From Verrucomicrobiota bacterium (GTDB lineage Bacteria; Verrucomicrobiota; Verrucomicrobiia; Limisphaerales; J093): a stretch of 64,000 nt of DNA. Shown piece after piece: positions 3,837 to 51,725 of the stretch (positions within the stretch are counted from its first letter, which is position 1; each line of letters begins with the position of its first letter). The notes beneath the pieces were generated by a model. That model made no database searches and was not told where the DNA came from. It saw nothing but the letters and a program-made list of their open reading frames with translations. Position numbers and translations under genes: made by a program. The stretch is from assembly GCA_016716505.1 (NCBI GenBank), contig JADJWF010000002.1, forward strand, positions 471,597 to 535,596, in the 5' to 3' direction.

Positions 3837-3937
3837 GGCGTGAAGCTACCGAAATCCTCCGCCCTCGCAACCACCGCGCCCGGGTCGGGCAGCGGCGGGC
3901 TTGCCGGCCCTCGGCCGACCGTGGTTTGCTTGCGCGC

Positions 3938-6271
3938 ATGAACGCTCACTTTTCCTCCCTCGCAGTCCTTCTCATCGCGATGCCGGTCGCGCACGCCGCT
4001 GAGCTGCACGTCGCCCCTTCGGGCAGCGACGCCAATCCCGGCAGCCGCCGCGCGCCGTTTCGAACGATTCAGCGGGCTGCCGAGGCCGCGCAACCGGGCG
4101 ACGTGGTGACCGTTCACGCCGGCACCTACCGCGAGCGGATTAATCCACCCCGCGGCGGCCTTTCTGACCGCCGGCGCATTGTTTATCAGGCCGCCCGGGG
4201 CGAGCGCGTGGAGATCAAAGGATCGGAGGTTGTGACCGGCTGGACTCGCGTACAGGACGACGTCTGGCAGGTCACGTTGCCGAACTCCTTCTTCGGCAGC
4301 TTCAATCCTTACACCAACGTGATCCGCGGGGACTGGTTCAATCCCTTGGGGCGCGTTCACCACACTGGCGCGGTGTATCTGGACGGTGAGTGGCTGACGG
4401 AGGCGGCCAGTCTCGATGAAATCATGCTGCCGGCCGGCCAAAAACCCGCCTGGGTGGGCGGCGGCAGCGAGGACTATTTGCTGAACGTCGCGTGGTTCCG
4501 ACCGGGGCCGGCTTCTGCCAATCGTGACCGCATTCCGGCCGCCCGATTCTCGGCCCAGCACGGGGTTCAGTCCGCTCCGAGTTCCGAGGGTGGCGACTGT
4601 CTGGGCTGGATCAACGCGGGCGACTGGGTTCGCTATGAAAACGTGGACTTCGGGGCCGGCACCTCGGAAGTGGAACTGCGGGTCGCCTCCGCCGCAGCGG
4701 GCGGCGTCATCGAGTTGCGGCACAATTCGCCGGACGGCGAGTTGCTGGGCGCCGCGACCGTCCGGCACACCGGCGATTGGCAGGCCTGGACCTCAGTGAC
4801 CGCGCCGATCAAGAGCGTCAGCGGCACCCAAACCCTCTGTCTCGTCTTCCGGGGCGGGGCCACGACGCAGCGCAATCCGGCCATCAATCCGAATCTTTGG
4901 TTTGCCAAGGTGGAGGGTGGCCAGACGACTCTCTGGGCCCAGTTCCCGGGCGTGAATCCCAACGATCGGCTGGTCGAGATCAACGCGCGGCAGTCGGTCT
5001 TTTATCCGGACCAGCCGGGCCGCAACTTCATCACCGTGCGCGGCTTCATTCTCCGGCACGCCGCCACGCCCTGGGCGCCGCCCACCGCCGAGCAGATTGG
5101 CCTGATCGGCACGCACTGGAGCAAGGGCTGGATCATCGAGAGCAACATCGTCAGCCACTCGGTTTGCACGGGAATCACGCTCGGCAAGCACGGTGATGAG
5201 TTTGACAACACCTCCGCCGACACCGCCGAGGGGTACGTGAAGACCATCGAACGCGCCCATGCCTTTCGCATCCCGTGGACGCGGGAGCACATCGGCCACC
5301 ACATTGTGCGCGGCAACACCATTTCCCACTGTGAGCAGGCCGGCATCGTGGGCAGCCTCGGTCCGGCGTTCAGCCTCGTGGAGGGGAATGTCATCCACGA
5401 CATCCACGTGCGCCGCCTTTTCACGGGGGCCGAGATGGCGGGCATCAAGTTCCACGCCGCGATTGACACCGTGATCCGCCAGAACCGCATCTTCCGCACG
5501 AACATGGGGCTGTGGCTGGACTGGATGGCCCAGGGCACGCGCGTGTCGCGCAACCTCTTTTATGACAACGCCGGCCAGGACCTTTTCGTCGAGGTCAATC
5601 ACGGCCCGTTCGTCGTGGACAACAACCTCTTCCTGTCACCCACCTCAATCCTCGACATGTCCGAAGGCGGGGCGTACGTCCACAACCTCTTCGCCGGCAA
5701 GATCACCAACCGCCCCGAACCGTCGCGCGACACGCCGTACCACCCGCCCCACAGCACGGTGGTGGCCGGGCTCGCGAAAACCACGGGGGGAGACAACCGC
5801 TTCTTCAACAACCTTTTCATCGGCACCGGGGAATCCCCGACCATCGGCCAGCGGGGTAATCTTAAAGAACTCCGGTGGATCAGCAGTCACGGCCTGTGGG
5901 GCTACGACGGCCGGGAGTTTCCAACACTCGCGGCCGGCAACGTGTACTACTACGGCGCGGAGCCCGCGGCCCAGGAGGTCAGCCCGCTGGTTCGCCGTGA
6001 GCACAATCCCGCGCCGCAATTGAGCGAGGACCACGACCGCGTGACCTTGCGGCTCACGCTGGACGACGCGATCGTCCAGGCGCGAACCGTCCGCGTGGAC
6101 ACCGCGCGGCTCGGCAAAACCAAGGTCGCCAATCTGCCCTACGTGAACGCAGATGGTTCGCCTCTCGTGGTGGACCGGGACTATCGCGGCCGACGCCGAA
6201 GCAATTTGAAGCCAACACCGGGGCCGTTTGCGAAGGTGCCATCCGGACCGACCGCGGTGCGCGTGTGGTGA
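3938..6271 (+). CDS. Secreted right-handed beta-helix protein with DUF1565-like N-terminus and an internal CBM6-like module
   Basis: The ATG at 3938 gives a signal peptide (MNAHFSSLAVLLIAMPVAHAAE) followed by LHVAPSGSDANPGS...TIQRAAEAAQPGDVVTVHAGTY. The CBM6-like block is GWINAGDWVRYENVDFGAGTSEVELRVAS...TGDWQAWTSVTA. Parallel beta-helix repeat motifs follow. Codons from 3650 upstream are Arg-rich and overlap the LOG gene in antisense. Confidence 0.75.
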   Translation: MNAHFSSLAVLLIAMPVAHAAELHVAPSGSDANPGSRRAPFRTIQRAAEAAQPGDVVTVHAGTYRERINPPRGGLSDRRRIVYQAARGERVEIKGSEVVTGWTRVQDDVWQVTLPNSFFGSFNPYTNVIRGDWFNPLGRVHHTGAVYLDGEWLTEAASLDEIMLPAGQKPAWVGGGSEDYLLNVAWFRPGPASANRDRIPAARFSAQHGVQSAPSSEGGDCLGWINAGDWVRYENVDFGAGTSEVELRVASAAAGGVIELRHNSPDGELLGAATVRHTGDWQAWTSVTAPIKSVSGTQTLCLVFRGGATTQRNPAINPNLWFAKVEGGQTTLWAQFPGVNPNDRLVEINARQSVFYPDQPGRNFITVRGFILRHAATPWAPPTAEQIGLIGTHWSKGWIIESNIVSHSVCTGITLGKHGDEFDNTSADTAEGYVKTIERAHAFRIPWTREHIGHHIVRGNTISHCEQAGIVGSLGPAFSLVEGNVIHDIHVRRLFTGAEMAGIKFHAAIDTVIRQNRIFRTNMGLWLDWMAQGTRVSRNLFYDNAGQDLFVEVNHGPFVVDNNLFLSPTSILDMSEGGAYVHNLFAGKITNRPEPSRDTPYHPPHSTVVAGLAKTTGGDNRFFNNLFIGTGESPTIGQRGNLKELRWISSHGLWGYDGREFPTLAAGNVYYYGAEPAAQEVSPLVRREHNPAPQLSEDHDRVTLRLTLDDAIVQARTVRVDTARLGKTKVANLPYVNADGSPLVVDRDYRGRRRSNLKPTPGPFAKVPSGPTAVRVW

Positions 6272-11979: not shown

Positions 11980-12549
11980 ATGCTGCGACAATTCGGCCTC
12001 AAAAAATCGCCCTGGGTGGTGCATTTCAACTGCAACAGTTGCAACGGCTGCGACATCGAACTGCTGGCCTGCCTTTCGCCGCTCTATGACCTCGAGCGGT
12101 TCGGGATCATCCACGTTGGCAATCCCAAGCACGCGGATGTCCTGCTGGTGACCGGGTCGGTCAACCATCGAAATGCCCGCGTGTTGAAGAACGTGTACGA
12201 CCAAATGCCGGAACCCAAGGCGGTCGTCGCCGTGGGCGTGTGCGCCTCCACCGGCGGCATCTTCCGCGAATGCTACAATGTGCTGGGCGGCATCGAGGAG
12301 GTCGTGCCGGTGGACGTGTTTGTGCCCGGCTGTCCGGCGCGGCCCGAAGCGGTGATTGACGGCATCGTCAAAGCCGCCGAGAAGCTCGACCTCAGGCGCC
12401 GCGGCCAGCCGGTCTCCCGGCCGTCGCTGGTCCCGGAGACGCACGAGCCCTCGCCGAAACCAGCGGCGCCACCGGAAACCGTTCCGGCCACGCCGGCCTC
12501 CCCGGCCGCACCCGTCGCCGCGCCCGCCGAACTCGCGAAAACCCCATGA
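11980..12549 (+). CDS. echC: Ech hydrogenase small subunit C (NuoB-like, [4Fe-4S])
   Basis: Has the NuoB-type cluster ligands CNGCDIE, GVCASTGG and PGCPARPE. It carries an additional C-terminal tail of about 50 aa rich in Pro and Ala. Confidence 0.9.
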   Translation: MLRQFGLKKSPWVVHFNCNSCNGCDIELLACLSPLYDLERFGIIHVGNPKHADVLLVTGSVNHRNARVLKNVYDQMPEPKAVVAVGVCASTGGIFRECYNVLGGIEEVVPVDVFVPGCPARPEAVIDGIVKAAEKLDLRRRGQPVSRPSLVPETHEPSPKPAAPPETVPATPASPAAPVAAPAELAKTP

Positions 12550-12953
12550 GCCTCCTGCCCGCCAAAACGGTCACGCCCGACAATCTGTTGCACGAGGTCG
12601 CCGTGCTGCGACAGCAAGGCTACCGCCTGGTGACGCTGACCTGTCTCGACCAGGGAACCGGGCACACGGTGTACTATCATTTCGACAAGGCCTACCAGCC
12701 GTTGCATCTGCGGCTCGAGATTCCGGACGGTCAGGAACTGTGCAGCGTCAGCAGCCTCTACCCGGCCGCGATGATCGTGGAGAATGAGATCAAGGATCAC
12801 TTCGGCGTGAAGTTCACCGGGCTGGCCCTCGATTTTCAGGGGCGGCTGATGCTCACGGAAGCCGCCCCCAAGACGCCCATGAACCGCTTCCGCCGCTGCG
12901 GCATGGAACTGGACGCCCGCCAGCCCGCCGCCGCCTCCCCTGCCGCCGCATGA
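12546..12953 (+). CDS. echD: Ech hydrogenase subunit D (NuoC-like)
   Basis: 135 aa in the NuoC/HycE-N-like position between the small and large subunits (YPAAMIVENEIKDHFGVKF). ATGA overlaps at both ends. Confidence 0.7.
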   Translation: MSLLPAKTVTPDNLLHEVAVLRQQGYRLVTLTCLDQGTGHTVYYHFDKAYQPLHLRLEIPDGQELCSVSSLYPAAMIVENEIKDHFGVKFTGLALDFQGRLMLTEAAPKTPMNRFRRCGMELDARQPAAASPAAA

Positions 12954-14029
12954 GCCAGCGCACCACCATCCCGTTCGGTCCCCAGCATCCGGTCTTCCCG
13001 GAACCGATCCAGTTGCGCCTCATTCTCGAAGATGAACGCGTGGTCGAGGCCCTCCCGGCCATCGGCTACGTTCACCGCGGCCTCGAGAAGCTGGCGGAGC
13101 AGAAGGACTTTCAGCAGGACGTCTTCCTCATCGAGCGCATCTGCGGCATCTGCAGCTTCATGCACGCGATGAACTACTGCCAGGGCATCGAACAGCTCCT
13201 GGGACTAGCCGTGCCGGAGCGGGCAAAATACCTGCGCCTGATCTGGGCCGAGTTGCATCGGATGCACAGCCACCTCCTCTTCCTGGCGCTGCTCGCCGAT
13301 TCCTTCGGCTTCGAAAACCTCTTCATGCAAACCCTGCGTTGCCGGGAGGAGATTCTCGACCTGATGGAGATCACCGCCGGCAACCGCATCATGCTCACCA
13401 CTTGCTGCATCGGCGGCGTGCGCAAGGACATCACGCCCGACCAGTTGAAGCGGATTGGGACGGGGCTGGACCGGGCACAAGCGTCGCTGCGGGAACTCGG
13501 CGGCGCGTTTGCGAAGGACTACACGATTCAGCGGCGGCTCAAGGGAATCGGCGTCCTGACCCGCGAAAAGGCGCACGAACTCGGCGCCGTGGGGCCGGTG
13601 GCCAAGGCCAGCGGCCTTGCGATGGATCTCCGCCAGACCGGCTACGCCCCGTATCCAGAACTCGGTTTCAACCCGATCACCGAGACGAACGGCGACGCCT
13701 ACGCGCGCATGATGGTGCGGTTGCGCGAGCTGGACCAGAGCGCCGAACTCATCCGCGCTGCCATGGGCCGGCTGCCGGACACGCCGCTCTCGGTCCCCTT
13801 CAAGGGCAACCCGACTGGTGAGGTCGCGGCCCGCATCGAACAATCGCGTGGGGAACTGCTGTTCTTCATCAAGGCAAACGGCTCGAAGAACCTGGAACGC
13901 TTCCGCGCGCGCACGCCGACCTTTGCCAACCTCGCGCCCTTGCTCCACATGCTGCCGGGCTGCGAACTGGCGGATGTGCCGGTGATCGTGGTTTCGATTG
14001 ATCCGTGCATCAGTTGCACGGAACGCTGA
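12950..14029 (+). CDS. echE: Group 4 [NiFe]-hydrogenase large subunit (EchE)
   Basis: 359 aa. Both NiFe-ligand cysteine pairs are present: N-terminal ERICGICS and C-terminal DPCISCTER. GPQHP and GYVHRGLEKL are NuoD-like motifs. Confidence 0.92.
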   Translation: MSQRTTIPFGPQHPVFPEPIQLRLILEDERVVEALPAIGYVHRGLEKLAEQKDFQQDVFLIERICGICSFMHAMNYCQGIEQLLGLAVPERAKYLRLIWAELHRMHSHLLFLALLADSFGFENLFMQTLRCREEILDLMEITAGNRIMLTTCCIGGVRKDITPDQLKRIGTGLDRAQASLRELGGAFAKDYTIQRRLKGIGVLTREKAHELGAVGPVAKASGLAMDLRQTGYAPYPELGFNPITETNGDAYARMMVRLRELDQSAELIRAAMGRLPDTPLSVPFKGNPTGEVAARIEQSRGELLFFIKANGSKNLERFRARTPTFANLAPLLHMLPGCELADVPVIVVSIDPCISCTER

Positions 14030-14048
14030 CCCCCACGCCGACCCGACC

Positions 14049-14354
14049 ATGGTGGACCTCCTTCGCAATCTGCTTCGCAACGCCTCCCGGTCGCCGGTGA
14101 CCCGGCCGTATCCGGCCGAACCCCATGTGCCGTTCGCGGAGGCCCGGGGATGCCTCGAATTCGATCCGGACACCTGCACCTACTGCTCGGTCTGTGAGAA
14201 ACGGTGCCCGACCGGCGCGATCAAAGTGACGCGCAAACCCTCCAAATCGTGGACCCTCCAGCCGCACGCCTGCATCCTCTGCGGCTACTGCATTGAAGTC
14301 TGTCCCAAAGACTGCTTGTGGATGGACGAACATCATCGGGGCCCGGCCGCCTGA
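14049..14354 (+). CDS. echF: Ech hydrogenase 2x[4Fe-4S] ferredoxin subunit (EchF, NuoI-like)
   Basis: Two CxxCxxCxxxCP motifs (CTYCSVCEKRCP and CILCGYCIEVCP). The ATG at 14049 lies just after the echE stop. The maximal ORF start at 13998 overlaps echE. Confidence 0.85.
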   Translation: MVDLLRNLLRNASRSPVTRPYPAEPHVPFAEARGCLEFDPDTCTYCSVCEKRCPTGAIKVTRKPSKSWTLQPHACILCGYCIEVCPKDCLWMDEHHRGPAA

Positions 14355-39877: not shown

Positions 39878-40112
39878 GATGGCCGCAGGTTAAGCGCCGC
39901 CCCGCCTGAAGCAAGCCGGAGCGGCCGTCAACGCGCCGGGAAAGCTGAAGAGGGAGGGGCCGGCGGACGGTTGAAGCCCATCCCGTGGCAGGCACCAGTT
40001 CTGCGCCGCCGCGGCCACCATTCGCTGGCCCAAAAGCGTCCTCCGCCGGTGGTAGCGAGCGGCATGGTTTCTCCGCTTGTTCGCTCCGCGGCATCGGCCT
40101 ACGCTGCTGACC

Positions 40113-40182
40113 GGCAATGGAGTTTGCCGTCTGGCTCGTCCAGAAAACCGCCTGAATCGTTTTCAGCGCTGATGACTCCTGC
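40113..40182 (+). promoter_or_regulatory. Fluoride riboswitch (crcB motif), variant with an inserted hairpin
   Basis: GGCAA-TGGAGT-TTGCC (P1 enclosing the 5' pseudoknot strand), an extra hairpin TCTGG-CTCGT-CCAGA, AAACCGCC, a P3 hairpin, then GCGCTGATGACTCCTGC. ACTCC pairs with GGAGT. The conserved AAAC..GCC and CUGAUGAnUCCU blocks are present. It lies 146 nt upstream of a DUF190 gene. Confidence 0.75.
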
Positions 40183-40327
40183 CGAACTGCGGAAGCTGAT
40201 CGGTGGCGAAGTGATGTGGAGTCAGCTCCAGACCGGGCGGCCGAACGCGCAGGCAAGCGCGTCCGAAGCCCTCGCTTTCCACGCCACGGGTTGGCGTTGA
40301 GGCGAATGTTCCCGAACCCATCCGTTT

Positions 40328-40687
40328 ATGCATCTCCCCCATGAAGCCATGCTGCTGCGGATTTTCCTTGGCGAATCCGACCGCTGGCAGCACCGCCCGC
40401 TCTACGAAGCCATCGTCCTCAAGGCGCGCGAGGCGCACCTGGCCGGCGCCACCGTGCTGCGCGGACCGATGGGCTTCGGCAAATCCAGCCGGCTCCACAC
40501 GGCGAAAATCCTCCGCCTCTCGATGGACCTGCCCCTGGTCATCGAAATCGTGGACACCGAGGAGAAGATCCAGGCTTTCCTGCCTGTGCTGGACGAAATG
40601 ATGCAGGGCGGTTTGGTCACGCTGGAAAAGGTGAAGGTGATTGACTACCGCGCCGGCCCGGAGGCCGAGGCCTCGCCGGAAATCTGA
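40328..40687 (+). CDS. DUF190 (PII-like, COG1993) protein
   Basis: 119 aa. LRIFLGESDRWQHRPLYEAIVLKAREAHLAGATVLRGPMGFG is the typical DUF190 core. Confidence 0.8.
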   Translation: MHLPHEAMLLRIFLGESDRWQHRPLYEAIVLKAREAHLAGATVLRGPMGFGKSSRLHTAKILRLSMDLPLVIEIVDTEEKIQAFLPVLDEMMQGGLVTLEKVKVIDYRAGPEAEASPEI

Positions 40688-40699
40688 ACCCGCCCGATC

Positions 40700-41914
40700 A
40701 TGGACAACATCTGGTTCATCGCCGCGTTTTGGATGGGGCTGGCGCTGCTGGCCAGCTTGATCTCCATCCGGCTGGGCATCTCGGTCGCCTTGATCGAGAT
40801 ACTCGTGGGCGTGGTGGTCGGCAATCTGCATGGCCCGGGCCAGGCGCCGCTCCTGCACACGACCGAATGGACCAACTTCCTGGCGATGCTCGGCAGCGGC
40901 GTGCTGACGTTTCTGGCCGGGGCGGAAATTGACCCCGCCTCGCTCAAGGCCAACCTGCGAGCCAGCATGACCATCGGGGTCGTCTCATTTTTGCTGCCGT
41001 TTCTGGGCGTGTGGTTCTTTGCGCAATACGTCCTGCACTGGCCGTTGCACCAGGCCTGGATCGCGGGCATCGCGCTGTCCACCACCAGCGTGGCGGTGGT
41101 CTATGCGGTGATGATCGAAGGCGGGTTGGGCAGCACGCCGCTGGGCAAAACGCTGCTGGCCGCCTGCTTCATCACCGACTTCGGCACGGTGCTGGCGCTG
41201 GGCGTCCTGTTCGCCGACTTCAACCTCTGGCTCATCGTCTTCGTCGGCGTGTCGGCGGTGCTGCTCTGGTTCATGCCGCGCTGGACGCGCTTCATCATCA
41301 CCCGGCTGGGCGCGACGCGCGTGAGCGAGCCGGAGGTGAAGTTCCTCTTCCTGGTCTTGTTCTTCCTCGGCGGGTTGGCGTCCACCGCCAAGAGTGAGGC
41401 CGTGCTGCCGGCCTATCTGCTGGGCCTCGTCGTCGCCGGCGTGTTTCTGCGCGACAAGACCCTCGTGCATCGGATGCGTTCCATCGCCTTCGCCATCTTC
41501 ACGCCGTTCTACTTCATTAAGGCGGGCCTGTTTGTCTCGCTGCCGGCGCTGTGGTCCGCCCTGGGCGTCATCGCGCTGCTGCTGGCGATGAAACTGGCGA
41601 CCAAGTATGTCGGCGTCTGGCCGCTCTCACGCGTGTTCTGGATGCGGTCGCGCGAGGCGAATTACACCGCGCTGCTGATGTCCACCGGGCTGACCTTTGG
41701 CACCATCTCCGCCCTGTTCGGCCTGCAAAACCAGATTATCAGTCAGGAGCAGTACTCCGTGCTGGTGACGGTCGTCATCCTGAGCGCGTTCGTACCGACG
41801 CTGATCGCCCAAAAGTTTTTCCAGCCGACCCTGCGGACGATGAACGCGTGGGGCCGACTCTACCAACGCAAGGTCAACGGCAAATCCACTGCCCCACCGA
41901 CCATCGGAAAGTGA
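40700..41914 (+). CDS. Cation:proton antiporter (CPA2/Kef-type Na+/H+ exchanger family)
   Basis: 404-aa polytopic protein with a sodium/hydrogen-exchanger-family layout (GISVALIEILVGVVVGN, FLAGAEID). Confidence 0.85.
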   Translation: MDNIWFIAAFWMGLALLASLISIRLGISVALIEILVGVVVGNLHGPGQAPLLHTTEWTNFLAMLGSGVLTFLAGAEIDPASLKANLRASMTIGVVSFLLPFLGVWFFAQYVLHWPLHQAWIAGIALSTTSVAVVYAVMIEGGLGSTPLGKTLLAACFITDFGTVLALGVLFADFNLWLIVFVGVSAVLLWFMPRWTRFIITRLGATRVSEPEVKFLFLVLFFLGGLASTAKSEAVLPAYLLGLVVAGVFLRDKTLVHRMRSIAFAIFTPFYFIKAGLFVSLPALWSALGVIALLLAMKLATKYVGVWPLSRVFWMRSREANYTALLMSTGLTFGTISALFGLQNQIISQEQYSVLVTVVILSAFVPTLIAQKFFQPTLRTMNAWGRLYQRKVNGKSTAPPTIGK

Positions 41915-41921
41915 GGCCATC

Positions 41922-42347
41922 ATGTTTCAGAAAATACTTGTCGGTTACGACGGCTCGAAAGGCGGGCGCGCCGCGCTTGAGCGCGCCGCGGCGCTCGCCC
42001 GCGAAGGCAACGCGCAACTGACCGCCATCTGGGTCCGCCAACCCCTGCCCCGACACGCCGACCTGCCCGGCGAACCAGAAGGTGAGGAGGAAGCGGCACA
42101 CGACTACTTCGCGGAGCGCAAACGCGAAGTCGAGGAGGTGGCCAAACGGTTTGGTGTCCCCATCACCTGCGAGAGCAAGGCCGGCCACGCCGCCAAGGTC
42201 ATCGTCAACTTCGCCAAGGAAAAGGGCTTTGACCTCATCGTCGTCGGCCACAGCGATCATTCCGAACTCTGGGGCCGCCTGCTCGGCGACACCGCCGACC
42301 GCATCAGCGATCACGCCCATTGCAGCGTGCTGATTGTGAAGGCGTGA
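41922..42347 (+). CDS. Universal stress protein (UspA family)
   Basis: 141 aa: MFQKILVGYDGS...DLIVVGHSDHSELWGRLLGDTADRISDHAHCSVLIV. Confidence 0.85.
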   Translation: MFQKILVGYDGSKGGRAALERAAALAREGNAQLTAIWVRQPLPRHADLPGEPEGEEEAAHDYFAERKREVEEVAKRFGVPITCESKAGHAAKVIVNFAKEKGFDLIVVGHSDHSELWGRLLGDTADRISDHAHCSVLIVKA

Positions 42348-42419
42348 ACCGGCCTGCCCGGGTCGCCCAAGGCAAGCTTCGCCATTTGCCATCGGCTGCT
42401 CCAAGGCCAGCAGCACGTC

Positions 42420-43011
42420 GGGCTGGGCCTCGTTGCTGATCGTAGATCAAGCGTTCCGGAACACAGCGAGCGAGGCCTCGCGAGCCAGATCGGGGCGGCC
42501 AGCGTGGGTGAGATGCTGCCCCCTTAACCCGCGAGATCATGTTCATCGCGCGCCACCTCGCCGGCACCCGGAGCGGACGCCGCGCCCGGGCGAAGTCTCC
42601 CAGCTCGCCCAGCGGCTGATGCAACACCTCGGCGTACAGGAAGACCAGCGCGTTCAACGCCTGATTCTGCGTCGAGGCGGACACCCGGCCTGCGGTGGCC
42701 AAATGGGTCAGAAACGCCGTGACCTCGGCTGCCCCCATCTCCCGGGGGTGCCGCCACGCCTCCGGCCCGGCGATTCCCGGCCGCTTGTGGAATCGCAAGT
42801 ACCGCACGATCCACTGCCAGTACGCCTCCTCCGTGCGCTGCGAGTAATGGAAGAAGCGCATCACCTCGTGGACCTGCTCCCGCAACGAAGCCCTGGGATT
42901 GGGTTGCAGCCGGCCCAGGGGCCGCTGTCGCGCTGGTGGCGTGCTAGGCGACAAAAAATCGGGCGAGGCTGGCGAATTCAACGGCTTGACAGGCAGTTGA
43001 GAAACCTTCAC
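42420..43011 (-). pseudogene. intI: Integron-integrase-like tyrosine recombinase, N-terminal fragment (frame lost, catalytic domain absent)
   Basis: LREQVHEVMRFFHYSQRTEEAYWQWIVRYLRFH...AAEVTAFLTHLATAGRVSASTQNQALNALVFLYAEVLHQPLGELGDFARARRPLRVP matches the pattern of IntI N-terminal SAM-like domains. After RRPLRVP the expected VVL..EV..L.G continues only in another frame (GAGEVARDEHDLAG, then stop). No R-H-R-Y catalytic domain follows. The maximal ORF (to 42304) runs into the usp 3' end. Confidence 0.7.
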
Positions 43012-43087
43012 CCTGCGTAATCATCGATATAGTCACAACCGTTGAAATGCAACTGTCGCTCACTTAACTGATGGGCGAAGAGAAACT

Positions 43088-43450
43088 ATGCCAAATCGCA
43101 GACTCACTGACAAAGAGCTTCAAGATTTGTTTCGCCCGTTATACGAGCAGGTGACCGGGCGTATGCAGGAGTTGAGTCGTGGCGCTTCGGATTTGCTTTG
43201 GGCACTCCGCCGCAAGCTGGCCAAGAGTTTGGTGTACGACGAGCGGGGCACTCCGATGCACCGTCGCCGCATCAAGACGCTCAAGCGTGCAGAGCAGCAG
43301 GGACTTTGTGCCATTTGCCGCGAGCCTTTGCCCGAACGTGGCGCAGTGCTGGATCGTTTGGAGGCTATGCAGGGGTACACACTCGCCAATACTCGCTTGC
43401 TTTGCCGTGAGTGTGATGAGCGAGTACAGGCGGAGCGGAAGTACACATGA
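43088..43450 (+). CDS. Small HNH-like zinc-ribbon protein (catalytic His replaced)
   Basis: 120 aa. The C-terminal CAICREPLPERGAVLDRLEAMQGYTLANTRLLCRECDERV follows the CxxC...DH...N...CxxC(H) HNH layout but has DR and D at the His positions. It sits in a lower-GC context and is the first ORF after the intI remnant. Confidence 0.5.
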   Translation: MPNRRLTDKELQDLFRPLYEQVTGRMQELSRGASDLLWALRRKLAKSLVYDERGTPMHRRRIKTLKRAEQQGLCAICREPLPERGAVLDRLEAMQGYTLANTRLLCRECDERVQAERKYT

Positions 43451-43476
43451 GCATTGCCGCGCCCATCCATGCAGTC

Positions 43477-43565
43477 GAGCGAACCGCGAGCCAGCCGACC
43501 GGCTCGCTTGGTAAAGGCGGCGTCAGGGGCGGCTGGCTCGCGGTCGCTCACTTTTTACGTTAGCC
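43477..43565 (+). repeat. attC-like partial site / terminator hairpin (site 1)
   Basis: GAGCGAACCGCGAGCCAGCCG (43477-43497) pairs with CGGCTGGCTCGCGGTCGCTC (43530-43549), with one extra A in the 5' arm. This is followed by ACTTTTTAC and GTTAGCC (43559-43565). I found no RYYYAAC-like box on the 5' side. Confidence 0.4.
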
Positions 43566-43615
43566 CGTGACGTCGCGGGCGAGTCGAACACGCACAGCAA
43601 CCAGAAACGCCCACC

Positions 43616-44311
43616 ATGAAAACAACCGTCAGAACCACGAAAGGAATCGCAGTCGCAATCACGGCGCTGGCGTTGGCCAGCGCGAGCGTCACTCAACTCC
43701 AAAAACACTCCGAACCGGGCACGTATTATTCGGCCAAGGATTTCGAGTGGAGTCCCCCGTGGCCGTTCCACCCGCATCCAGAACTCGATGCGGTCGAGAT
43801 CGAGCCGGGCATTTTCGTCTTTGACGACACGACCATCCCAGACACGCCGCAGCAGGCTGAGGCACGCAAGCGGCACGAGCAGGCGGCGGCGCACGCCGCC
43901 GCCATCGCGGCTGACCCCGTCCTTGCCGCAGCAGCGCGACAAACAGCCGAGGAAGCCGCGCGTCAGGCCGAGGCGAAATGGCAAGAGAAGAAGGCCGCGC
44001 TTGCGCCACAGATACGGGCACTGATTCCGCCCGGACAAGCGACCAGCGAGCAAAAGCAGCAAGATGGCGAAGCGGAATTCGCAGCACTGCGTGAGCAGGC
44101 GGTGCGCTCCGCAGCGGAACAGCCAGCCAAGGAGCGCGCACTCGACGAACTGGCCAAGCGGCTCGGCGTGCCGCGCGAGATTCAGGAATCAGATGGGCGG
44201 ACGTTGATTCTGACGGACGAAATTGCTGGTTCACCGGCCTACCTGAGCAGCCACAACACGGTGGCGGCGGCGGGCATCAGCGCGGACGAGTTGTGGCCGC
44301 TCGGTGCCTGA
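43616..44311 (+). CDS. N-terminal segment (signal peptide, Ala/Gln-rich linker, pre-catalytic region) of an S8 peptidase, ended by an in-frame TGA
   Basis: Signal peptide MKTTVRTTKGIAVAITALALASA. The C-terminal NTVAAAGISADELWP is the segment that normally precedes the Asp box of subtilases. It is in the same frame as the following ORF. Confidence 0.7.
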   Translation: MKTTVRTTKGIAVAITALALASASVTQLQKHSEPGTYYSAKDFEWSPPWPFHPHPELDAVEIEPGIFVFDDTTIPDTPQQAEARKRHEQAAAHAAAIAADPVLAAAARQTAEEAARQAEAKWQEKKAALAPQIRALIPPGQATSEQKQQDGEAEFAALREQAVRSAAEQPAKERALDELAKRLGVPREIQESDGRTLILTDEIAGSPAYLSSHNTVAAAGISADELWPLGA

Positions 44312-51649: not shown

Positions 51650-51725
51650 TGGTAGCGCGTATGGGAATCGAACCCATCTTTCAGCCTTGAGAGGGCCGTG
51701 TCCTAAACCGATAGACGAACGCGCC
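51650..51725 (-). tRNA. tRNA-Glu (anticodon CUC)
   Basis: Hand-folded 76-nt cloverleaf: acceptor GGCGCGT/ACGCGCT (with G1-U72), D arm GTCT-ATCGGTTTA-GGAC, anticodon arm CGGCC-CTCTCAA-GGCTG, T arm ATGGG-TTCGATT-CCCAT, discriminator A and an encoded CCA. Confidence 0.82.

Follow-up and report, generated by a model that had tools for sequence, protein, structure and literature searches.

Genes for K+ and cation transport were already listed among the partners of the crcB-motif RNA in 2010 (Weinberg 2010, PMC2864571), and a review (PMC11139923) describes Na+/H+ antiporters as the second most common riboswitch-associated class after the exporters, an association explained by pH homeostasis and the acidification accompanying the entry of hydrogen fluoride (HF). 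According to the same review, only ~15% of Flucs are riboswitch-controlled. In Enterobacter cloacae, a riboswitch operon with uspA, eno, and crcB was experimentally shown to be induced by fluoride and to confer resistance (PMC5533749), and a riboswitch-CLC-NhaP pair is described in C. difficile (PMC11477304). The association between antiporter genes and the fluoride riboswitch is already known. Here, we analyzed a 64,000-nucleotide (nt) stretch of DNA, referred to as the window, from a Verrucomicrobiota bacterium (assembly GCA_016716505.1, contig JADJWF010000002.1, positions 471,597 to 535,596 of the forward strand), in which a fluoride riboswitch with an extra hairpin precedes genes for a DUF190 protein, a cation:proton antiporter, and a universal stress protein (Usp). 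The reading that we favor, with a probability of about 0.65, is that a functional fluoride ON riboswitch with a lineage-typical hairpin controls these three genes as a fluoride-stress operon, most likely derived from a cassette with crcB as its first gene.

The fluoride riboswitch and its extra hairpin

The whole window (65% G+C) was scanned against Rfam 15 (4227 families, gathering thresholds) with cmscan, and two matches were obtained, one of them a tRNA. The other, the fluoride riboswitch RF01734 at 40104–40188 on the plus strand, scores 43.6 bits (gathering score 34, E = 9.1e-9) and covers the full model (1–64). The RNA in the window is a fluoride-sensing riboswitch of the known class, as supported by this match, by covariation, and by the minimum free energy (MFE) fold. 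The conserved blocks GGCAAUGGAGUUUGCC (40113–40128), AAACCGCC (40145–40152), and GCGCUGAUGACUCCUGC (40166–40182) were read from the plus strand. P1 is formed by 40112–40116 with 40125–40129 (GGCA/UGCC at 40113–40116 and 40125–40128, together with C40112-G40129) and encloses the loop AUGGAGUU, the J linker AAACC is located at 40145–40149, and P2 spans 40150–40169 with seven pairs and a bulged C40167. The 3' part of the aptamer, GAUGACUCCUGC, runs to 40182. Five pairs form the pseudoknot, between GGAGU in the P1 loop (40119–40123, plus strand) and ACUCC at 40175–40179. The core nucleotides (GAUGG of the P1 loop, the AAC linker, CUGAUGA, and the linchpin A and U) are all present in the cmscan alignment. 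In our own mapping onto the numbering of PMC8752731, the linchpin A and U would correspond to A40172 and U40180. The aptamer would be expected to bind fluoride. When 40110–40171 was folded alone, the MFE structure consisted of P1, the extra hairpin, and P2 (−21.2 kcal/mol, z = −2.2, 55% of the ensemble).

The extra hairpin, UCUGG-CUCGU-CCAGA, comprises 15 nt at 40130–40144 (plus strand) and abuts P1 with no spacer; the cmscan alignment handles it as a 14-nt insertion after P1. For comparison, 82 loci with antiporter homologues at 71–96% identity were gathered (83 with the window; single loci are given L numbers below), and a covariance model including the hairpin was built, which found 107 riboswitches in the 83 sources. 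An insertion of 10–27 nt occupies exactly the hairpin site in 94 of the 107, with 89 distinct sequences, and 93 of the 94 form a hairpin when folded alone. The hairpin helix is paired in 92.2% of the alignment cells and exhibits both-side (compensatory) changes in 5/5 pairs. Pairing reaches 92.3% in P1 and 97.6% and 87.2% in the outer and inner parts of P2, with compensatory changes in every pair. The pseudoknot is paired in 96.6% of the cells and is nearly invariant, so covariation gives it little support. Since the alignment was fitted to the model, a control in which the 3' partners were slid is the more meaningful test, and there the pairing of the whole structure falls to 32–64%.

The insertion is carried by all 79 riboswitches from metagenome-assembled genomes (MAGs) labelled as Verrucomicrobiota. 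The 13 riboswitches without it belong to Holophagaceae, Acidobacteriota, Bacteroidetes, Ignavibacteriaceae, Planctomycetaceae, Latescibacterota, and one unlabelled contig. Furthermore, metagenome contigs were scanned independently with an RNA-only pattern permitting 0–30 nt at the hairpin site, which gave at least 121 matches. Among the matches listed, linker length was bimodal, with 2–6 nt in 94 and 11–28 nt in 27, and 26 of the 27 long linkers are hairpins; the hairpin form represents about a fifth of these listed matches. Also among them, RNAs with long linkers adjoin CrcB, DUF190, or antiporter genes 55–89% identical to Verrucomicrobial ones, and RNAs with short linkers adjoin distant CrcBs (31–49% identity). 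The short linker of 2–6 nt without a third helix, to which the window does not conform, is typical of the class and not a defining feature. The extra hairpin is thus a real, conserved helix, and it appears typical of the Verrucomicrobiota lineage.

At the gathering score, Rfam recovers 40 of 41 custom-model matches in 32 loci (34.7–57.4 bits), together with one extra match in L016. As the Rfam model still detects the copies with a hairpin, they are ordinary RF01734 members by the Rfam criterion, and the idea that the hairpin hides such riboswitches from standard annotation was rejected. A full-text literature search, with Baker 2012 and Ren 2012 outside its reach, found no description of a further hairpin or stem in the fluoride riboswitch. 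The fluoride riboswitch serves as a model for RNA folding and anion recognition, and a natural and widespread variant whose third helix abuts P1 is suited to the study of how peripheral helices tune docking and fluoride sensitivity.

A sequence-only reading of this DNA had proposed a fluoride riboswitch with three conserved blocks, a GGAGU/ACUCC pseudoknot, and a 16-nt hairpin inserted where most members have a few nucleotides. The covariance-model search places the RNA in RF01734 above the Rfam threshold, the blocks and the pseudoknot lie where they had been read, and the metagenome matches listed agree on the usual short linker (94/121). The hairpin is also real and correctly positioned, with a length that had to be amended from 16 to 15 nt.

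Operon genes, cassette variants, and the place of crcB

Three genes on the plus strand follow the riboswitch, which sits in their 5' leader, the position expected for the riboswitch of fluoride-response genes. The first, at 40328–40687, encodes a DUF190 protein (UPF0166/COG1993) of 119 amino acids (aa) with a full-length match to Pfam PF02641 (146.9 bits, cut-off 23.4). It is followed at 40700–41914 by a 404-aa cation:proton antiporter with the Na_H_Exchanger domain (PF00999, 142.7 bits, cut-off 26.2, residues 14–368) and at 41922–42347 by a 141-aa Usp matching PF00582 over its full length (106.8 bits, cut-off 24). The gaps of 12 nt between DUF190 and the antiporter and of 7 nt between the antiporter stop and Usp indicate that the three genes form one operon. 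No CRCB or Voltage_CLC Pfam domain was detected in the 30 open reading frames (ORFs) of the window, and six-frame profile and tblastn searches of the whole 64 kb, run with a CrcB profile from 25 relatives and the riboswitch-controlled CLC of L016, returned only noise (E = 0.13–0.5). Given the ~15% of Flucs under riboswitch control (PMC11139923), a riboswitch-free crcB elsewhere in the genome would be unremarkable.

CrcB, DUF190, antiporter, Usp, and enolase were mapped on all 83 loci with tblastn, and the result was combined with the riboswitch matches. At 77 of the 83 loci of the antiporter clade, a fluoride riboswitch precedes a co-oriented gene set of the DUF190/antiporter/Usp type; in the other 6, no riboswitch was detected directly upstream. 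The arrangement riboswitch-crcB-DUF190-antiporter-Usp, often continued by enolase, was found at 23 loci, and riboswitch-DUF190-antiporter-Usp without intact crcB at 12 (the window, L003, L004, L007, L008, L010, L027, L029, L039, L054, L056, and L057). At 42 loci, the riboswitch directly precedes the antiporter or the antiporter-Usp pair. Usp comes after the antiporter in 61/83 loci. In L014, L030, and L061, crcB is located beside the cassette rather than first in it. L047 contains a tandem partial duplication (1691–1940, 3880–5212), with the riboswitch and ~130 nt from the start of the antiporter gene repeated 2.2 kb upstream of the intact unit, and its 661-kb contig also bears a second full cassette, L007.

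Remnants of crcB are visible in several of the loci without an intact copy. N-terminal crcB fragments are found in the spacers of L004, L007, L010, and L054 (E 3e-8 to 6e-27), and in L023 and L037 crcB-like peptides open directly ahead of the antiporter. In the window spacer (40189–40327), no crcB remnant was found by hmmsearch of the three forward frames with the CrcB profile (window E 3.4) or by blastn against the relatives. Among these relatives, the spacer is related only to that of L003, an independent assembly whose whole leader is 96% identical to that of the window and which likewise has no crcB remnant, so that for these two the loss of crcB is deduced from context. The fragments in other crcB-less loci and the crcB-first cassette of the relatives lead us to read the window form as a crcB-deleted derivative: most likely, to judge from this comparison, the cassette arose by crcB loss from a crcB-first cassette and not as a channel-free design. 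The cassettes offer a clear case of a riboswitch outliving its first gene, in which crcB decays repeatedly and a short ORF with the start codon under riboswitch control is kept before the genes that follow.

The antiporter consists of the membrane domain only and has no KTN/RCK domain. Its best NCBIfam match, TIGR00932 (CPA2), scored 102.2 bits, below the cut-off of 238.3, and the protein is therefore called CPA2-like or NapA-like here and not a curated CPA2 member. The KefB and KefC equivalogs gave 37.8 and 27.7 bits (cut-offs 804 and 752), which, together with the missing KTN/RCK domain, makes the source annotation KefB only a superfamily label. Of the proteins with a solved structure, NapA (4BWZ, E 1e-9) is the closest relative. 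The TM5 Asp-Asp of NapA, the ion-binding motif of electrogenic CPA2 proteins, which we take to be D156-D157 in transmembrane helix (TM) 5, aligns to T-D in the antiporter (FITDFG, from residue 157). Across the clade this motif reads T-D in 75/83 members and N-D in 8/83, the TM4 motif LSTTSVA(V/I) is found in 83/83, and all variants listed for the TM10 segment have the Lys. These residues point to a site of the cation/proton type, with nothing to suggest transport of anions or fluoride. Such a tight clade, almost always under fluoride control, is an obvious candidate for learning the role of these long-noted riboswitch partners.

In the case of DUF190, the closest solved relatives are PH1503 (2DCL, E 5e-28) and TM0021 (1O51, E 3.5e-22). 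The PII-like label of the family presumably reflects its COG1993 and Pfam-clan assignment. With hhalign, a profile of 20 DUF190 sequences was co-linear over 82 columns with E. coli GlnB, at a probability of only 7% and E 0.005, and the single-sequence AlphaFold model had a predicted local distance difference test (pLDDT) score of 48 and was unusable. In the metagenome sample, which was selected by RNA, DUF190 follows crcB in 43 of 52 loci with room for it among the matches listed, and only 2 of 59 listed loci carry DUF190 without crcB, one of which (L202) has the exact gene order of the window. On these counts DUF190 is normally a companion of CrcB, and its retention without a crcB in cis is an unusual feature of the window form. 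The literature search found no experimental link between DUF190 and fluoride.

These findings bear on whether the operon could stand in for an exporter, with the T-D-motif CPA2 antiporter, DUF190 and/or Usp exporting fluoride or giving specific resistance in place of CrcB. The antiporter is indeed the invariant core of the cassette, riboswitch-controlled at 77/83 loci, crcB is dispensable in cis at 54 riboswitch-controlled loci, the TM5 motif departs from the canonical DD of NapA, and the 64-kb window encodes no exporter. However, the clade retains three features of cation/proton antiporters (the essential second Asp, the TM10 Lys, and the TM4 TS motif), the most complete of the cassettes also contain crcB, the crcB-less ones with their crcB fragments look like decay products, and crcB is found beside the cassette in the three loci mentioned above. 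We regard such an exporter module as very improbable. It also appears very unlikely that, in crcB-less lineages, the antiporter with Usp and sometimes DUF190 provides self-sufficient fluoride resistance, by a new CPA2 transport activity or by strong pH/cation homeostasis.

We rather take DUF190, the antiporter, and Usp to be fluoride-regulated accessories, and nothing shows that they replace an exporter. The sequence-only reading had described a riboswitch ahead of a DUF190, CPA2-type antiporter, and Usp operon, a set of known riboswitch partners, that lacks crcB and clcF. This description holds: the Pfam matches identify the three genes, neither exporter occurs in the operon or elsewhere in the 64 kb in the Pfam and six-frame searches, and the partnership agrees with PMC11139923 and PMC2864571. 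Its further suggestion, that the antiporter and DUF190 may themselves be the fluoride-response module, survives in part. They are retained as fluoride-regulated accessories, and a larger role is opposed by the crcB-first cassette in 23/83 loci, the crcB fragments, the cation-type site, and the companionship of DUF190 with crcB (43/52 of the matches listed).

Expression platform and the leftover reading frame

In the relatives, the aptamer leads into a platform composed of ACUCCUACCG (the 3' pseudoknot strand and the next bases), a short loop, and the complement CGGUAGGAGU, in which the Shine-Dalgarno sequence lies; a U-run and then the start codon (AUG) of the first gene follow. Among 92 relatives, the platform has a median energy of −15.4 kcal/mol, at least 4 of the 5 pseudoknot bases are paired in the platform MFE in 66, and the AUG is preceded by a Shine-Dalgarno-like motif in 41 and by a U-rich tract in 38. 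This is a classic ON-switch arrangement, in which the locked pseudoknot and the sequestering or terminator helix would be mutually exclusive. The window contains a homologous platform at 40175–40212 (plus strand), where 40175–40185 is predicted to pair with 40200–40212 in an OFF helix corresponding to ACUCCUACCG...CGGUAGGAGU-U-run-AUG of the relatives. In the MFE structure of 40174–40216, this helix has eleven pairs and two bulges (−14.0 kcal/mol), pairs all five ACUCC bases, takes in U40180, and ends 1 nt before the AUG at 40214. The OFF helix is thus a prediction from folding and comparison. Another helix, with seven perfect pairs between UGACUCC (40173–40179) and GGAGUCA (40218–40224), was rejected because GGCGUCA in L003 breaks the pairing.

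The AUG at 40214, located where crcB begins in the relatives, opens a leftover ORF of 28 codons, MWSQLQTGRPNAQASASEALAFHATGWR, on the plus strand (40214–40300). It is in the frame of DUF190, with one TGA (40298–40300) between them, and this TGA is also present in L003. By blastp, the leftover peptide exhibits no likeness to CrcB beyond its first two codons (MW), which match the crcB of L038 and L007. In L008 (3462–3905), the corresponding ORF continues in frame into DUF190, giving a fusion product of 147 aa from the riboswitch-controlled AUG.

According to the reading that we favor, 40175–40185, comprising the 3' pseudoknot strand and the linchpin U, would pair with 40200–40212 in the absence of fluoride, and initiation at AUG 40214 would be blocked. 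In the relatives, the OFF helix holds the Shine-Dalgarno sequence and has a U-run after it, and hence may also be terminator-like. With fluoride and Mg2+, the pseudoknot between 40119–40123 and 40175–40179 would be locked, the OFF helix barred, and ribosomes would start at 40214, which is the crcB start in the relatives and, with crcB gone, opens here the leftover ORF. Its translation may relay the signal to DUF190, the antiporter, and Usp through re-initiation, the opening of structure, or averted premature termination. The antiporter would then exchange a cation for protons and counter the acidification caused by HF entry, and Usp and the putatively PII-like DUF190 may act as accessory or regulatory partners.

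The relay is supported by a comparison of the non-redundant crcB-less loci. In 12 of 17, the leftover ORF ends between −10 and +35 nt from the next gene or is fused to it, with ~4 expected from shuffled spacers. The scripted count was 11, a value reached in 0 of 20,000 shuffled-spacer simulations, and the in-frame fusion of L008 was added by hand to give 12. Several points weigh against our reading at this stage. The span of −10 to +35 nt was picked after the data had been seen, and ORFs kept open through descent from crcB would inflate the statistic, so that the relay by the leftover ORF is a supported inference and not a demonstration. The fold of the whole leader (40100–40345) is as stable as its shuffles (z = −0.38) and hence uninformative. 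The sequence ahead of AUG 40214 lacks a U-run (one of the last 8 nt is T) and a clear Shine-Dalgarno sequence, and a search near the riboswitch and in the spacer revealed neither an intrinsic terminator nor a sigma-70 promoter. Moreover, the 27 nt from the leftover-ORF stop to the DUF190 AUG at 40328 are longer than in most relatives, and the ORF differs from that of L003 by three amino-acid changes and one silent change, such that the peptide is not conserved.

Some of these points would also suit a regulatory relic, in which the riboswitch, after the loss of crcB, governs only a meaningless 28-codon ORF and DUF190, the antiporter, and Usp are constitutive or driven by a promoter of the 140-nt spacer that escaped recognition. 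The missing Shine-Dalgarno sequence and U-run, the 27-nt gap, and the unconserved peptide count in its favor, as does a spacer unrelated to relatives other than L003. However, the aptamer is intact and scores 43.6 bits against 36–39 bits for the riboswitches of three scored relatives, the stability of the OFF helix is like the family median, and the whole leader is kept at 96% identity in the independent assembly L003. Furthermore, the riboswitch is retained before DUF190 without intact crcB in 12 independent loci, and the spacer contained no promoter-like site. With this evidence, we consider a relic unlikely.

The lack of an intrinsic terminator in the window, although the relatives have a U-run, raises another alternative, namely transcriptional control mainly by Rho. 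An untranslated leftover ORF would lead to termination in the spacer, and fluoride-enabled translation would permit read-through. The ORF from the controlled AUG spans most of the spacer, as this model would have it, and riboswitch control combined with leader-ORF polarity is an established principle. As the principal mode of control we think it quite unlikely, and it is a variant of the reading preferred here rather than an alternative to it. Taken with the conserved hairpin, the platform comparison raises the possibility that the fluoride aptamers of Verrucomicrobia make up a structural subclass of their own, with an obligatory third helix abutting P1 and a first gene that recurrently decays into a signal-relaying leader ORF, an idea that we find likelier than that of a self-sufficient resistance device.

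Possible mobility, neighboring genes, and comparison with known systems

The closest homologues of the antiporter are from Verrucomicrobiota, including the cultured Fontisphaera persica (87% identity). The genes flanking the cassette in the window (fcl, queA, and ribD_C) are common to L003 only, and the other 81 loci differ. Antiporters 73–84% identical are found in MAGs labelled Acidobacteriota, Planctomycetota, Bacteroidetes, and Ignavibacteriaceae, which, together with the unshared flanks, suggests horizontal spread of the cassette. In L002 (4943–8891, 20227–21227), the cassette lies between genes for TrwB/TraG-like coupling proteins and a TrwC-like relaxase, a setting that looks like an integrative and conjugative element. 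In the window, an ORF on the minus strand (42304–43011) shares 44 nt with the 3' end of Usp and contains only the N-terminal Phage_int_SAM_4 domain (aa 43–135) with no catalytic domain. This ORF probably represents a truncated integrase at the edge of the cassette. The non-conserved neighborhood, the conjugation genes of L002, and this truncated integrase indicate that the cassette may be mobile, and the widespread Verrucomicrobial fluoride cassette as a whole is probably so. Compositional evidence of transfer was rejected, as the G+C content of the cassette (0.63–0.65) is like that of the upstream genes and falls to 0.58–0.61 only past the integrase fragment (42800–43800). Two contigs binned as 'uncultured Bifidobacteriaceae' (L009 and L024) carry the Verrucomicrobial-type cassette, with antiporters 78–83% identical to that of the window and, in L024, a hairpin-bearing riboswitch, and are probably mis-binned.

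Additional fluoride-regulated genes were observed in the relatives. In L007 (7013–7878) and L010 (4132–4981), a protein of ~245 aa is encoded under a second fluoride riboswitch, which lies downstream of Usp or enolase; the sole domain match of this protein, to the AAA_16/nSTAND1 P-loop at the N-terminus, is weak. The gene recurs under fluoride regulation, and ORFs of similar size occur in L031, L032, L037, L040, L053, L057, L060, and L069. Genes for dynamin-family GTPases lie directly under a fluoride riboswitch in L039 (5694–7520) and L041 (7083–8406), and in Fontisphaera persica (L001, 11647–13332) such a gene comes right after Usp. Other riboswitch-controlled genes include an OEP-MFP-RND efflux system in L002 (13164–18907), a metallophosphoesterase in L015 (7721–8394), and, on the minus strand of L016 (1719–3789), a CLC with a CBS domain, divergent from a riboswitch-antiporter-Usp unit. 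In the rest of the window, the only other Rfam or ARAGORN match is a tRNA-Glu (anticodon CTC, 51650–51725, minus strand), and the housekeeping context comprises genes for the 20-kDa, 30-kDa, and 4Fe-4S subunits of NADH dehydrogenase (complex I) at 11980–14354 and a Fur-family regulator at 2247–2717.

Overall, this is a known system with modest new details and overturns no current understanding. What is modestly new is that the aptamer has a conserved third helix in this lineage, that crcB has recurrently decayed to a short leader ORF at the start codon under riboswitch control, and that fluoride control is near-obligate in a CPA2-like clade with the T-D motif. Compared with the fluoride riboswitch class (RF01734; the aptamers of B. 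cereus and T. petrophila, PMC8752731), the RNA shares P1 with its AUGGNGUU loop, P2, the 5-bp pseudoknot, and the GAUGA...CUCCU 3' block including the linchpin A and U, and it scores above the Rfam gathering threshold. The ON logic is likewise shared, with the 3' pseudoknot strand also used by a competing downstream helix. It differs in the hairpin of 10–27 nt between P1 and AAAC, where 94 of the 121 metagenome matches listed have 2–6 nt, and in the competing helix, which in the relatives holds the Shine-Dalgarno sequence and U-run, both degenerate in the window.

One of the closest known systems is the operon of the E. cloacae FRM island, riboswitch-ppaC-uspA-eno-gpmA-crcB-orf5249 (PMC5533749). 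Both are riboswitch-led multigene operons with a Usp gene, and enolase and crcB are also found among the relatives of the window. A mobile-looking setting is shared as well, a genomic island in E. cloacae and, in our loci, the conjugation genes around L002 and the non-conserved flanks of the cassettes. In contrast, the operon in the window, known here from its sequence alone, has no crcB, enolase, pyrophosphatase, or gpmA, and contains a CPA2 antiporter and DUF190 instead. The antiporter shares with NapA, the CPA2 Na+/H+ antiporter of Thermus thermophilus (4BWZ, 5BZ3), the 13-TM Na_H_Exchanger fold, co-linear over residues 11–367, as well as the TM4 T-S motif, the second TM5 Asp, and the TM10 Lys (K305 in NapA). 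The relationship is distant, with Thr or Asn in place of the first TM5 Asp in the clade and TGLT in the window in place of PRGE in TM11. The DUF190 proteins PH1503 and TM0021 represent a family usually found beside crcB, whereas the DUF190 of the window is not next to crcB. Finally, the Li+ and Na+ riboswitches of nhaA-type antiporters (PMC9646797) share with this locus the principle of an ion-sensing riboswitch that turns on a cation/proton antiporter. The RNA class is different, and the ligand here is an anion that is probably not carried by the antiporter, so that the link between the two would run through pH and ion homeostasis.

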